Shown: positions 6,115 through 58,064, counted from the first letter of the stretch. The stretch: 64,000 bases of DNA from Fidelibacterota bacterium (GCA_018650795.1 JABIFG010000058.1:9497-73496), one strand, 5' to 3'. Notes: a model not told the origin generated them from the sequence alone. Numbers and translations are program-made.

Positions 6115-6155
6115 TCAATTTATTCCATTTACCAAACTGTGTGCTTGATTCGTCC

Positions 6156-6310
6156 GTCATCCTGAGGCTCTCGAAGGATGATAGTCCAAATCCGCTTCCC
6201 CCTTCGACGAAGCTCAGGGTGACACTCCTGAGTGCGCGATTGGGAGAGGGTGACACTTCGACCAGCCTTCGTTTTCAGCTTCGGCTGGCAGGCAAGCTCA
6301 GTGTCCGGTA
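6156..6310. repeat. Intergenic dispersed element with inverted-repeat ends (GTCATCCTGAGG ... GCTCAGGGTGAC), followed by a degenerate second copy
   Basis: gtcatcctgaggctctcgaaggatgatagtcc ... cttcgacgaagctcagggtgac at 6156-6223, then gggtgacacttcgacc ... agctcagtgtcc. Related copies occur at about 18535, 38886 and 57978. Confidence 0.5.
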
Positions 6311-6315
6311 AACAA

Positions 6316-18442: not shown

Positions 18443-18477
18443 GGAATAATCTTATCCCTCATTCACTTTAGGTATAA

Positions 18478-18498
18478 TTGGTATACTAATATATACCA
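18478..18498. promoter_or_regulatory. Inverted repeat TGGTATA-N6-TATACCA about 40 bp upstream of the sulfatase start; instance of the recurring GTATA/TATAC operator-like motif
   Basis: ttggtatactaatatatacca. Related palindromes at 31148-31165, 38811-38820 (TAGTATACTA), 42731-42739 and 52869-52887 (AAGTATActtaaTATACTT), all upstream of transcription-unit starts. Confidence 0.3.
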
Positions 18499-18534
18499 TA
18501 ACAAGGTGTATTCAAGGGAATTCGGGGGGTTTCA

Positions 18535-18650
18535 GGTAAGGAGACTGAGCTTGTCGAAGTCGGTTGGTTATCACCCTATGGTAATGGACATTTCGTCCTT
18601 CGACTCCGCTCAGTATGACAGCTCAATGTCCGAGGAATCTTATAGCTTCA
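18535..18650. repeat. Copy of the dispersed intergenic element (CTGAGCTTGTCGAAG ... CGACTCCGCTCAGTATGAC)
   Basis: Shares the CTGAGCTYGTCGAAGT core and a CTCAG(G/T)ATGAC end with the copies at 6156, 38886 and 57978. Confidence 0.4.
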
Positions 18651-31075: not shown

Positions 31076-31147
31076 GGTGCTCTCTCCTTCGAATTAAATT
31101 CTTGAACAGATACTATAAAATGTTGCTACATATAATTAATGGTAATA

Positions 31148-31165
31148 GTATACTAATTATACCCA
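31148..31165. promoter_or_regulatory. GTATA-N5-TATAC palindrome about 80 bp upstream of the 1500-aa gene
   Basis: agtatactaattataccc in the 290-bp AT-rich leader region 31076-31362. Confidence 0.3.
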
Positions 31166-38703: not shown

Positions 38704-38810
38704 CCTGGATTCACAGTCCTATCATATTGTATATATAACACTAACAGAAGCAGTCCTATTTTTAATGTATTTATATAGTAACATCAATCTATTGTGTCTT
38801 TATGTATATT

Positions 38811-38820
38811 TAGTATACTA
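38811..38820. promoter_or_regulatory. 10-bp perfect palindrome TAGTATACTA inside the shared block TCAATCT..TATGTATATTTAGTATAC, about 110 bp upstream of the gene start
   Basis: The same block (tcaatct...tatgtatatttagtatac) recurs at 42716-42739 upstream of the paralog that starts at 42611. Confidence 0.35.
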
Positions 38821-38885
38821 TATATTTTAATCATTCCAAGGAATACCTAAACAGTTATTTAGTGACACCAGAAAGTGAGAATTGT

Positions 38886-38978
38886 GTCATTCTGATGGAG
38901 CGCAGTGATAGAAGAATCTTGGTCCTTTTGATGGAATCCTTCTTATGGATCAAGATCCTACGCGGTGCTCAGGATGAC
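38886..38978. repeat. Copy of the dispersed intergenic element with clear terminal inverted repeats (GTCATTCTGATGG ... GCTCAGGATGAC)
   Basis: gtcattctgatggagcgcagtgatagaagaatc...cgcggtgctcaggatgac. The internal sequence resembles 6156-6190 (gtcatcctgaggctctcgaaggatgatagtcc). Confidence 0.5.
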
Positions 38979-39003
38979 GGGGAGAAATGACATTTCGATG
39001 GAC

Positions 39004-39041
39004 AAATAAAAAGAGGCTGATAGCCTTTCAGCAATCAGCCC
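39004..39041 (-). terminator. Rho-independent terminator downstream of the 39070-40908 gene
   Basis: Minus-strand reading GGCTGATtgctgaaaggctATCAGCC followed by TCTTTTTATTT: perfect 7-bp stem plus T-run. Confidence 0.6.
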
Positions 39042-39069
39042 CTGATAAGTCAAAATCAATGACTCTATA

Positions 39070-40908
39070 CTATTTCATCAGGATCATTTTCCGGGTCAGG
39101 CTATGCATCCCCGATGATAATCTGGCAACATAGATACCAGACGGCATATTGGTCGCACTGAAGGTCAAGGTATATGAACCTGCAGTTTGATAGCCCTGTA
39201 CAAGTTTGCTGATCTCATTACCATTGACATCGTAAATCGTAAGTTCAACCACTCCACTCTCAGCTAAATCATAGCTCAATTGAGTCGAGGGATTGAATGG
39301 ATTGGGATAGTTTGTATGTAGAGCAAATGTCTGTGGACTCAGTCGACCATCGATTGAGACAGGACTAACCAGAATATAATCAGCCTTTGTCACAGTCACC
39401 GAAGCACCTGCCAAATCTCGTACAGTCAAACTCACTGAATAAGTTCCTGCCTCACTGAAAGTATAGCTCGGATTCTGAACATCTGAATCCTCAGTACCAT
39501 CATTATTAAAATCCCAACTCCAACCGATAATGCTAGATGCACCAGCTGTGGAAAGATCAGTAAATGATACTTCCAGAGGAGCTAGACCTTCAGTTACTGA
39601 AGCACTAAAATCTGCTGTAGGTGCATTATATGGATTGATTGTGATGATGACGTCATCGGTATCCGTAGCGCTACTGTCATCTGTAACCGTTAGTGTGACA
39701 GTATAGGTTCCAACCTCAAATGCGCTGGAGGCAGAAACACCTGAAGCACTGCCACCCTCCCAGGCCCAGTCATAACTGACAATCGAGCCATCACTATCCG
39801 ATGAGCCTGATCCATCCAATGTCACAAAGACGGATTGATTTGGTGCGGCAACATCAAAAGTTTGATCAGCTCCGGCGTTAGCGACTGGAGCATTGTTGCC
39901 ACCGCCGCCTCCGGAGGGATCACCCAGTTGATAAATTCTCCCACCTGGATTGAGATCTCCCAGAGCAATAACTGTGGTCGCATCATACATGTGAATCTCT
40001 CGTACCGTACAAGAGGTTGTACTGGGTATATCTGCTTCTGTCCAGGTAGCACCACCATCTGTGGTTTGATAAATTACTCCAGGACTTCCTGATCCCAGAT
40101 TACCACCTGCCATGGCATTATTTGCATCTAGATAATCTAAGGATTCAAATCTTGCCGCAGAGTTTAAAGTCATAGTTGTAAAATTTGCTCCCCCATCAGT
40201 TGTCTTGAGGGCAGAGCCATTAGTCCCAACAATCATCCAGTTATCCACATCAATAGCATCAATACCCAGAAAGACTGGCGTACCCAGACCCTGTGGCAGA
40301 ATAGTCCATGTGGCACCAGCATCCGTAGTTTTTGCGATAGCTCCCTTTTTCCCAACACTGACCCAGGTATTGTCATCAAGGAATTCCATATCATAACAGC
40401 CTGCTTTGCTGTGAATCGTTTGGAGTACATTTACAAGTGCACGACTCGAAGTCCAGTTCACACCTGCATCTTCGCTGATAAATACCTTACCACTATCGCC
40501 AACAGTGATTACTGTAGTAGCGCTCAACCATTTTGAGACCCAGAATGAATTTACTGCCTCAAAAGCTGGTGTTTCCCAGGTGGCACCACCATCACGAGTT
40601 ATCATGACGACATGGTCTTTGCCAGTGACGATTCCCAGGTTTACATCCCAGAAGTCTACTGAAAGCATCCCGGTCGGTGTCGTTGCTGCCGGGCAATCCA
40701 ATTCAGTCCAGGACGTTCCCCAGTCAGTGGTTTTTAAAACACCACCATAGGGTATATCTGTCTGATTGCCGATGGCGATATAGGCGGTCCCGTCATCCAG
40801 GATACTTATCTCCTGCAGTCGACCATCTGGTACAATTTCAGTCTCGGTCCATTGGGCAAACACAATTGATATTAGCAATAGTGCTGATACCCCTATTCGT
40901 TTAAGCAT
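39070..40908 (-). CDS. BNR/Ycf48-like beta-propeller protein with two PKD domains and a type-A T9SS CTD
   Basis: Propeller repeats (TTDWGTSW, TRDGGATW, EDAGVNW, TTDAGATW, TTDGGANF, TTDGGATW). Gly-rich linker. PKD regions ...VTLDGSGSSDSDGSIVSYDWAW... and SWDFNNDGTEDSDVQNPSYTFSEAGTYSVSLTVRD. CTD LHTNYPNPFNPSTQLSYDL...GIYVARL...RKMILMK. Confidence 0.7.
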   Translation of the reverse strand: MLKRIGVSALLLISIVFAQWTETEIVPDGRLQEISILDDGTAYIAIGNQTDIPYGGVLKTTDWGTSWTELDCPAATTPTGMLSVDFWDVNLGIVTGKDHVVMITRDGGATWETPAFEAVNSFWVSKWLSATTVITVGDSGKVFISEDAGVNWTSSRALVNVLQTIHSKAGCYDMEFLDDNTWVSVGKKGAIAKTTDAGATWTILPQGLGTPVFLGIDAIDVDNWMIVGTNGSALKTTDGGANFTTMTLNSAARFESLDYLDANNAMAGGNLGSGSPGVIYQTTDGGATWTEADIPSTTSCTVREIHMYDATTVIALGDLNPGGRIYQLGDPSGGGGGNNAPVANAGADQTFDVAAPNQSVFVTLDGSGSSDSDGSIVSYDWAWEGGSASGVSASSAFEVGTYTVTLTVTDDSSATDTDDVIITINPYNAPTADFSASVTEGLAPLEVSFTDLSTAGASSIIGWSWDFNNDGTEDSDVQNPSYTFSEAGTYSVSLTVRDLAGASVTVTKADYILVSPVSIDGRLSPQTFALHTNYPNPFNPSTQLSYDLAESGVVELTIYDVNGNEISKLVQGYQTAGSYTLTFSATNMPSGIYVARLSSGMHSLTRKMILMK

Positions 40909-42611: not shown

Positions 42612-42849
42612 ACACCTTCTCCTTTAATGTTAAATAAATATGAAACCTCGAGTTGCCTTCCTAAGACACTCTCATTTTCCAATAATTATATACTGTAAAA
42701 ACCATTATGTTATTCAATCTTATGTATATTTAGTATACCTATTTTTTATAAAAAAGCAAGTCTAACATTCTAACATTCTGTGTAAATCTTGTGACCCTAA
42801 AGCTTTACAAATTAGAGTGGAGGAATCTATCGATCCTTCAGAATTATTA

Positions 42850-52746: not shown

Positions 52747-52868
52747 TAAGACCTCACTTATACCGCTTATTGGTTTACCAATAAAGCCTGAATCTTCTTA
52801 TCGACGAAGACAGCTGGTTTAAATGTTCTTTTGCGTCCAATTTTTCATATCAGTGCATTACACTTTAT

Positions 52869-52887
52869 TAAGTATACTTAATATACT
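52869..52887. promoter_or_regulatory. Inverted repeat AAGTATA-N5-TATACTT about 130 bp upstream of the TonB-dependent receptor gene
   Basis: aagtatacttaatatactt in the intergenic region 52747-52941. Confidence 0.3.
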
Positions 52888-52941
52888 TTTAACATGACTA
52901 ATAACAAGCACGACTCATGCAATAAGTAGCCCAAATAATGT

Positions 52942-57905: not shown

Positions 57906-57977
57906 TTGGCTACATCTTTCTGTTTGTCACTATTGATCTGATTCATAATTCGACGATGTGATGAAAAAATCAAGTAC

Positions 57978-58023
57978 GTCATCCCGAGCGCGATGTACTG
58001 AGCTCGTCGAAGTGGAGTCGAGG
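57978..58023. repeat. Partial copy of the dispersed intergenic element (GTCATCCCGAGCG...CTGAGCTCGTCGAAGTGGAGTCGAGG)
   Basis: Shares the GTCATCCYGAG and CTGAGCTYGTCGAAGT cores with the copies at 6156, 18535 and 38886. Confidence 0.45.
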
Positions 58024-58064
58024 AATAACACATAACACTTCATCACCAGTTCATTATCTCAAGT

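Follow-up and report, generated by a model that had tools for sequence, protein, structure and literature searches.

What are the short inverted repeats that recur in the intergenic spacers of this 64,000-nt stretch of DNA (the window, taken at its full length)? An initial annotation, made from the sequence alone, had recorded four copies and proposed that they could be miniature transposable elements (MITEs), REP-like terminators or insulators, or a structured small RNA.

Hairpin units in the spacers of the window

All long ORFs of the window lie on the minus strand, and positions 1-64000 form a single co-directional cluster of fucosidases, sulfatases, beta-helix proteins, TonB-dependent receptors and type-9-secretion cargo, probably a locus for using sulfated fucans in an uncultured marine bacterium of the FCB group. 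Marine metagenome contigs are 100% identical to the window, and one of its proteins has its closest named relative in an 'FCB group bacterium' MAG. The four annotated regions correspond to the spacers at 6115-6315, 18443-18639, 38704-39069 and 57906-58064, which are flanked by genes for sulfatases, beta-helix proteins, BNR/PKD proteins and proteins with type-9-secretion sorting domains, with fucosidases nearby. Every copy sits directly 3' of a stop codon in a transcribed spacer. The copies had been placed at operon boundaries, and each does lie between two genes, but the term here means only that the neighbours are co-directional minus-strand genes.

The annotated motifs are present in all four regions, but four copies is an undercount, as the spacers really hold at least 10 units: three pairs plus three nested or interrupted units. 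The canonical unit, (T/C)GTCATCCTGAGCGNAGCGAAGGATC(T), is an oriented imperfect palindrome of ~25 nt. Its YGTC tag leads into a lower stem of 5 bp, which a TGA/GAA internal loop separates from an upper stem of 2 bp; the cap is usually a GNA loop, and a conserved C follows. Tags in the window read cGTCAT, tGTCAT or tGTCAC, and in all three pairs they face outward.

Units were scored with a covariance model (R1) built on an alignment (A1) of 126 distinct units taken only from other genomes and viral contigs, with no window sequence included. Scanning the window with all filters off and a cut-off of E<0.01 gave five matches, all inside three of the four annotated regions (~3% of the window). As a plain pattern, GTCATYCYGAG (≤1 mismatch) occurs 12 times in the window versus 4.4 expected, a count reached by 0 of 100 shuffles.

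The copy at 6156-6310 begins with a pair, as had been annotated. Its left arm, Unit A (GTCATCCTGAGGCTCTCGAAGGATGA, 6156..6181, plus strand), has its tag outward and matches R1 at 6153-6182 (27.0 bits, E 1.8e-4), and its right arm, Unit B (GTCACCCTGAGCTTCGTCGAAGGGGG, 6198..6223, minus strand), matches at 6196-6226 (20.4 bits, E 0.007). Together they fold as one long hairpin (RNA: -34.6 kcal/mol, z -5.2; DNA: -14.7 kcal/mol, z -2.9). The 6240-6310 part of this copy is not a simple continuation of the pair but a further unit, Unit C (GGACACTGAGCTTG...TCGAAGTGTC, 6252..6306, minus strand), which has the same apical loop on a different stem and whose loop apex is interrupted by an inserted hairpin of 31 nt (6262-6292).

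The copy at 18535-18650 is also a pair, with a nested unit in its right arm. The left arm, Unit Y (GGAGACTGAGCTTGTCGAAGTCGG, 18540..18563, plus strand), is without the GTCAT head, and R1 finds its core (18545-18559, plus strand) at E 0.38, which is not significant alone. Y-type arms also occur in the orthologous spacers of L324, a related locus (protein 73% identical). The right arm, Unit X (GGACATTGAGCT...GAAATGTCC, 18586..18631, minus strand), holds a canonical unit in its loop (GTCATACTGAGCGGAGTCGAAGGAC, 18595..18619, minus strand; R1 match 18592-18622, 25.6 bits, E 4e-4).

The third pair joins a long-loop unit on the left (GTCATTCTGATGGAGCGCAGTGATAGAAGAATC, 38886..38918, plus strand; R1 match 38883-38920, 23.8 bits, E 0.0011) to a canonical unit on the right (GTCATCCTGAGCACCGCGTAGGATC, 38954..38978, minus strand), which gives the best R1 match of the window (38952-38981, 27.6 bits, E 1.3e-4). 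This pair folds at -39.6 kcal/mol as RNA (z -3.2) and -17 kcal/mol as DNA (z -3.2). The C after the palindrome is present in both arms (38886 on the plus strand, 38978 on the minus strand) and absent or shifted in the other window units, several of which are degenerate, being without either this C or the GTCAT head. Next to the pair, TCGAAATGTC (38989..38998, minus strand) appears to be what is left of the 3' half of an X-type unit, an identity that we infer from its alignment with the X units filling this spacer in L324.

The copy at 57978-58023 is repeat-like, as annotated, and is best described as an outer unit (GTCATCCCGAGCG...GGAGTCGAGGAAT, 57978..58026, plus strand) with a second, inner unit in its loop (GTACTGAGCTCGTCGAAGTG, 57995..58014, plus strand). 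The intact form of the outer unit, GTCATCCCGAGCGGAGTCGAGGGATC, is seen in L219, and its head has a weak nhmmer match (57977-57991, E 4.4). R1 finds the core of the inner unit (57998-58012, plus strand) at E 0.61, and context supports it. Because this core-level match is not significant alone, the fourth region rests on its context rather than on its own score and is the weakest of the four.

The same spacers hold other signals. An AT-rich palindromic box, approximately TAGTATAC(T)A, occurs in five spacers (18470-18495, 31125-31160, 38800-38826, 42722-42745 and 52866-52890), upstream of minus-strand genes. It is conserved in L324 and looks like a shared promoter/operator for the fucosidase/sulfatase cluster. 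A classical intrinsic terminator (AGGGGCTGATTGC...GCTATCAGCCTC then TTTTTATTT, 39012-39043, minus strand) directly follows the gene whose end is at 39070. L324 has it too (1790-1830), and it is distinct from the adjoining hairpin repeat.

Anatomy, spread and turnover of the unit

The hairpin was scored on A1 with the pairs A4-T24, T5-A23, C6-G22, C7-G21, T8-A20, G11-C17 and C12-G16. Of the A1 cells at these positions, 90.6% are paired (21-52% in slid controls), and there are 51 double-sided changes versus 10 in shuffles. For example, the C6-G22 pair (columns 9-27) occurs as CG in 89 units, UA in 22, GC in 7 and AU in 2, and alignment columns 11-25 hold UA in 115 and CG in 9. Between the two stems, the G and A of G9.A19 and A10.G18 are invariant and could form tandem G.A pairs. 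The canonical unit takes the same structure under DNA folding parameters. However, the nearest-neighbour energy of single units is unremarkable (-2.7 kcal/mol, z -0.3), so it is covariation, not energy, that carries the argument for a hairpin. GCGNAGC, a common apex of these units, is described in PMC13037366 as an unusually stable DNA mini-hairpin.

Two positions that the searches left unconstrained are also conserved. The base before GTC is T or C in 91% and not G in 94% of the 126 external units, and the base after the palindrome is C in 76%. Mismatches in the stem are T.G in 37 cases and C.A in 16, an excess that fits a tagged strand working single-stranded. Subtypes retain the apical TGAGC-YYG-TCGAA and vary the stem, which in the window lineage can be GGACAT...ATGTCC, GGACAC...GTGTC or GGAGAC...GTCGG.

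Exact-pattern scans of viral contigs and of one-genome-per-species contigs each gave at least 120 matches, and those listed cover more than 15 phyla. The genome matches listed include Acidobacteriota, Chloroflexota, Bacteroidota, Nitrospirota, Nitrospinota, Gemmatimonadota, Planctomycetota, Verrucomicrobiota, Ignavibacteria, Omnitrophota, Saccharibacteria, Gracilibacteria, Peribacteria, Komeilibacteria, Lachnospiraceae, Oscillospiraceae, Christensenella, Desulfovibrio, Bdellovibrionales, Coxiellaceae and Hyphomicrobiales. The initial annotation would have fallen had there been no further copies in the genome and no significant alignment among the four; this objection fails decisively, since many genomes are rich in copies. 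Nor is the motif general background, as unrelated marine loci totalling 556 kb, fetched via a sulfatase, contained 2 units, both in an orthologous spacer. A blastn search with a canonical 69-nt pair found no match at E 0.01 in PLSDB plasmids or INPHARED phages, and since protein-led searches did find units on plasmids, this means only that near-identical pairs are absent. A full-text literature search for the exact DNA and RNA strings of the repeat returned unrelated primers only.

Units spaced ≤100 nt apart form 70 tags-outward pairs, 16 tags-inward pairs and 47 tandem arrangements. By crude ORF-based gene calls, unit density is lowest within genes (0.07 per kb) and highest between convergent genes (1.61), with divergent (0.53) and co-directional (1.04) spacers in between.

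Some loci depart from the common layout. In L221 (7194-7400), units lie in frame within a predicted lipoprotein gene, at the signal-peptide region (MKNSFPSVILSVAKNLAML...) and a Ser-rich linker, recalling the intragenic REPs/RPEs of Di Nocera et al. Six Acidobacteriota loci (L133, L147, L153, L210, L223 and L236) have a box, CAGGCTGCGGAAAAAC, ~12-14 nt upstream of the unit, a hint that the acidobacterial copies belong to a longer, composite element. L081 (8598-8969), where a viral contig ends, has five hairpin pairs arranged in tandem with an 87-nt period, and only the central loop varies. Small ORFs are called over the repeats in L324 (1907-2173) and elsewhere, giving peptides such as VILSEAKDL, CHPERSEGS and RDSSLRSE.

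Comparison with relatives of the window shows how these sets of units change. In L244 (sulfatase 89% identical), pair 1 is kept at 77% identity, and the third unit, on the other side of pair 1, is intact (GGACACTGAGCTTGTCGAAGTGTC), whereas the window's Unit C is split. L324 retains both the terminator and the AT-rich promoter-like box of the spacer at 38.9 kb, but between them the window has one GTCATCC pair and L324 has two X/Y-subtype pairs. The 18.5-kb spacer has an X/Y pair in both the window and L324, with the X loop interrupted by different inserts: the orthologous X of L324 holds a different 38-nt insert at the same apex, and the intact X form (GGACATTGAGCTCGTCGAAATGTCC) also occurs in L324. 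Loop-apex insertions in the window lineage number five. The elements therefore turn over, as orthologous spacers hold different sets of units and some units sit in the loops of others.

Partial copies containing only the head of the unit, mostly together with its short flank, are found within 45 nt upstream of 38 of 353 units, compared with 7 of 353 for the downstream control. Some are in tandem (~8 nt of flank plus GTCATCCTGAGC, with a period of 16-27 nt) upstream of full units, as in L077, L105, L190, L064, L341 and others.

A single-domain GIY-YIG gene beside the repeat

When the small ORFs adjoining units were listed, GIY-YIG-like proteins were seen among them. Among 120 motif-selected genome loci, tblastn located a GIY-YIG gene close to units, at 22-101 nt, in four (L139, L156, L231 and L234), and all four match PF01541. 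A protein homology search found thousands of single-domain GIY-YIG proteins of 92-110 aa in many phyla. The reciprocal test used six homologues that were picked by protein only and chosen for their long contigs; they come from Pseudomonadota, Clostridia, Patescibacteria and Nitrospirota MAGs and two metagenome assemblies. Units lie within ~50 nt of the gene ends in 6/6 and on both sides in 5/6.

Where such a gene lies between the arms of a pair in other genomes, it encodes a single-domain protein of 92-109 aa. In L329, L330, L335 and L338, the GIY-YIG gene occupies the spacer of a tags-outward pair, with a long-loop arm (GTCATTCTGAATGGAGCG.TAGCGGAATGAAGAATCTC) directly upstream of the RBS and a canonical arm directly after the stop. 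The long-loop unit at 38886..38918 in the window is of the same type as the arm upstream of such genes (compare GTCATTCTGAATGGAGCGTTAGCGGAATGAAGAATCTC in L330 and L335), and pair 3 as a whole combines both arm types in that order, with the gene absent. Short pairs such as this one would thus be gene-less derivatives of the longer arrangement.

This arrangement is that of a known system. Ssn is a family of single-domain GIY-YIG proteins (cd10448-type, about 94 aa) whose genes are flanked by hairpin repeats termed SRM (Chenal et al. 2025, PMC11893778). SsnA of Neisseria binds its site, the NTS (CGTCATTCCCGCGMAVGCGGGAATCYRG), solely in single-stranded form and on the tagged strand alone, and its cut falls a few nt upstream. 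It is inactive on dsDNA and on RNA, and DNA that carries the NTS transforms less well in its presence. Cutting depends on the three bases ahead of the palindrome, and binding depends on the C behind it (PMC11893778). These two determinants correspond to the most conserved unconstrained positions of the window-type unit. The head-only duplications described above lie where SsnA would cut, though any connection between the two is speculation.

A N. gonorrhoeae homologue is 40% identical to our GIY-YIG query (E 2e-11), and its gene has canonical NTS copies on both sides. The two systems share this neighbouring protein, homologous to that of an NTS-flanked Neisseria gene, along with the motif/small single-domain GIY-YIG gene/motif layout, an oriented hairpin that starts with a (C/T)GTC-A-T head and has a C behind its palindrome, and hundreds of intergenic copies. 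GIY-YIG homologues on Spirosoma and Planktothrix plasmids are flanked by window-type units as well. On the Planktothrix agardhii plasmid (L341, NZ_LR882964.1, 18150-19813), the Ssn-like gene and its units are inside a defence island, between an MmeI-type restriction-modification gene and DISARM drmA.

Negative results set bounds on this association. No ssn gene was found by tblastn in the 64-kb window, nor in the ~115 kb of flanking and relative loci examined. Searches of viral contigs found only 2 Ssn homologues, neither flanked by a window-type unit. One viral homologue (L342, 1330-1889) is flanked by a different CCTC-tagged hairpin (CCTCATCCCGAGGAGCG...CTCGAGGGACGAGG), which is another motif class of the same superfamily. 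Many Ssn homologues are on contigs of 0.5-2 kb, suggesting that the repeats break assemblies.

Measured against the description of SRMs, window and external units have an H-G-T-C-W-Y tag directly before the palindrome, the imperfect palindrome of 20-50 nt is able to form a hairpin, as shown by covariation, and a C directly follows it in the 76% of external units given above. The window-type unit differs in that its stem is broken by the TGA/GAA internal loop and usually has a GCGNAGC cap, and in where we find it: Acidobacteriota, Chloroflexota, Bacteroidota, candidate-phyla-radiation groups, Firmicutes and viral contigs. The search string published for SRMs, HGTCWYN(0-2)YYVSBRHN(0-5)WNVSBRGN(0-2)RNCYNB, matches the Neisseria NTS but nothing in the window, 0/126 seed units and 0/396 nhmmer units. 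We therefore call the repeat a variant class rather than a plain member.

The repeat also belongs with a wider group. Di Nocera, De Gregorio and Rocco 2013 (PMC3733652) grouped CGTC/TGTC-tagged REPs, including Neisseria dRS3 and Rickettsia RPE-4 and RPE-6, and reported CGTC-tagged REPs in Bacteroidetes, Chlorobi, Thermotogae and Proteobacteria. Like these, for which CCTC is a further permitted tag, our units have an unpaired CGTC or TGTC tag at one end, a stem that begins A-T, T-A and a short unpaired tail. They are intergenic, mostly in co-directional or convergent spacers, with inverted pairs predominating (70 outward versus 16 inward) and occasional in-frame intragenic copies. In the text of that paper, CGTC-tagged REPs are described as having perfect stems of 8-9 bp, loops of 4-5 nt and a tail reading CCA, and no enzyme is associated with them, whereas the window-type stem has 9 positions, two of them G.A, with a loop of 3-6 nt, a C-T-C tail and an associated nuclease gene. 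The REP-like label of the initial annotation is thereby borne out, as the (C/T)GTC tag, imperfect palindrome and inverted-pair layout are those of the CGTC-tagged REP superfamily.

Because the repeat elsewhere flanks a tiny Ssn-family GIY-YIG gene, we regard it as a variant of a known system and not as a new kind of element. With good confidence, we interpret the window elements as gene-less copies of the cognate hairpin site of an Ssn-type GIY-YIG nuclease, forming a variant SRM (NTS-like) class within the (C/T)GTC-tagged REP superfamily. When the tagged strand became single-stranded (during replication, DNA uptake or conjugation, or in phage DNA), it would fold into the hairpin and be bound and nicked by a putative cognate Ssn encoded elsewhere in the genome. 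Copies may have entered the spacers by a copy-and-insert process favouring the non-coding 3' ends of genes and the loop apex of existing units, and any effects of the hairpins on mRNAs would be secondary.

Competing explanations and what the repeat means

A more ambitious version of this interpretation is possible, though we hold it tentatively and consider it the less probable one. It treats the units as a separate, near-pan-bacterial Ssn-site class that escapes the published search pattern. Here unit/ssn/unit would be a selfish element that is still active, and the short pairs would ride along without a gene, copies spreading via loop-apex insertion and junction duplication at the cut site, and reaching phage genomes as well.

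Among explanations that do without the nuclease, a role at the RNA level is the strongest, but we consider it unlikely. It proposes that the hairpins are 3'-end barriers which stabilise the upstream mRNA or attenuate read-through in the polysaccharide-utilisation cluster, with sequence conservation being secondary. The position of all window copies, just 3' of a stop codon in transcribed spacers, is what this explanation expects, and so is the enrichment of units between convergent and between co-directional genes. In the folding check suggested at the outset, both strands of the inverted pairs fold well, whether treated as RNA or as DNA, and the transcribed strand gives stable folds of -29 to -34 kcal/mol (z -1.8 to -3.6). 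Such effects have also been reported for E. coli REPs. However, single units show no orientation preference, with 42 sense and 40 antisense to transcription, which argues against a strand-specific RNA function. No T-run follows any pair on the minus strand (as read from the sequence), and pair 3 has a separate classical terminator beside it (39012-39043), so termination is not supported as the primary role. A generic RNA hairpin has no need for a tag and loop conserved across phyla, and SsnA does not bind RNA (PMC11893778). An RNA-level effect at gene 3' ends could still coexist with the nuclease-site reading as a side effect.

The suggestion of a structured small RNA fares no better. The window has 0 matches to Rfam 15 at gathering score and chance-level matches only at E up to 10, and the even strand split of single units counts against it too. 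One Rfam family does resemble the repeat: RF02901 (AaHKsRNA41, Aggregatibacter sRNA 41) has a consensus hairpin, GCUGAGCUUGCCGAAGCAUC ..., that pairs with an inverted copy, and it aligns to a GTCATGCTGAGCGGAGCGAAGCATC inverted pair in L071 (3007-3132) with 50.9 bits, below the gathering score of 97. It differs in being annotated as an sRNA, not a DNA repeat, and in having no match in the window. This Rfam 'sRNA' may itself be a repeat of the same superfamily. Four other ideas were discarded: a hammerhead-like reading of CUGA...GAA leaves no room for stem I, has a core that is not CUGANGA and has no counterpart in Rfam, and there was no support for SD/anti-SD sequestration, a primosome or single-strand origin signal, or a universal RNA-derived retro-copy.

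It is decidedly improbable that the units are REPs or REPINs whose mobility depends on a tyrosine transposase (Y1, HUH) of the REP-associated type known from E. coli and Pseudomonas. There are real similarities to the REP/REPIN-RAYT systems of Proteobacteria: short hairpins in inverted pairs, as in REPINs, are enriched at gene 3' ends, and the repeats flank a gene, present once, whose product cuts ssDNA. A Coxiella RAYT-associated REP (GTAGGTTGGGCTGAGCTTGCGAAGCCCAAC) has nearly the same apical loop, and TnpA-Y1 subclasses with atypical hairpins exist in Bacteroidetes, Acidobacteria and Planctomycetes. But the tag is YGTC, with GTCA at the hairpin foot where a GT[AG]G tag is not present, and the enzyme is a GIY-YIG and not an HUH/Y1 protein. 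Using E. coli RayT and IS608 TnpA as tblastn queries, no Y1 gene, RAYT included, was found in the window or in 3.6 Mb of motif-bearing loci, while GIY-YIG genes were beside units in every test. Di Nocera et al. likewise found no tyrosine transposase beside CGTC repeats (PMC3733652).

Classical MITEs, i.e., deletion derivatives of DDE-transposase insertion sequences with terminal inverted repeats and target-site duplications, are very improbable. The pairs are short and intergenic with inverted ends, and orthologous spacers differ in content, as MITEs would have it. However, no direct repeats flank the three pairs (flanks read by eye), each 'terminal repeat' is itself a hairpin with internal covariation, and single and tandem units are common. 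Clustering of neighbouring ORFs in viral loci gave no shared protein and no recurrent transposase, and the ORFs between distant inverted units included no transposase. The MITE label holds only loosely, in that the pairs resemble a unit/GIY-YIG gene/unit element without its gene, with neither target-site duplications nor a DDE/Y1 transposase.

Chance resemblance among four AT/GC-mixed spacers is scarcely credible: the 57978-58023 copy and the core-only matches are individually not significant, but five E<0.01 matches to an external model in ~3% of the window, and a pattern count that no shuffle reaches, refute it for three of the four regions.

The repeat is thus a real and well-defined example of a recently characterised kind, in a variant form which existing search rules miss. 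Within the window, the repeats are passengers in the spacers of a polysaccharide-degradation gene cluster, so the result is modest for the window itself, where the repeat is ordinary, and moderately interesting for the Ssn field. For annotation, the units yield spurious small ORFs and probably break metagenome assemblies. Ssn nucleases were described in 2025 and are of interest as site-specific ssDNA cutters, and each new motif class implies enzymes with new specificity. Since this class is very widespread and the published search string misses it, Ssn sites have probably been undercounted so far. Nested insertions, junction duplications and differing orthologous spacers bear on whether Ssn moves these repeats or merely cuts them. 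If the selfish-element reading is true, it would mean GIY-YIG-driven, ssDNA-based transposition in bacteria, parallel to that of IS200/IS605 and RAYT but with a different protein fold.
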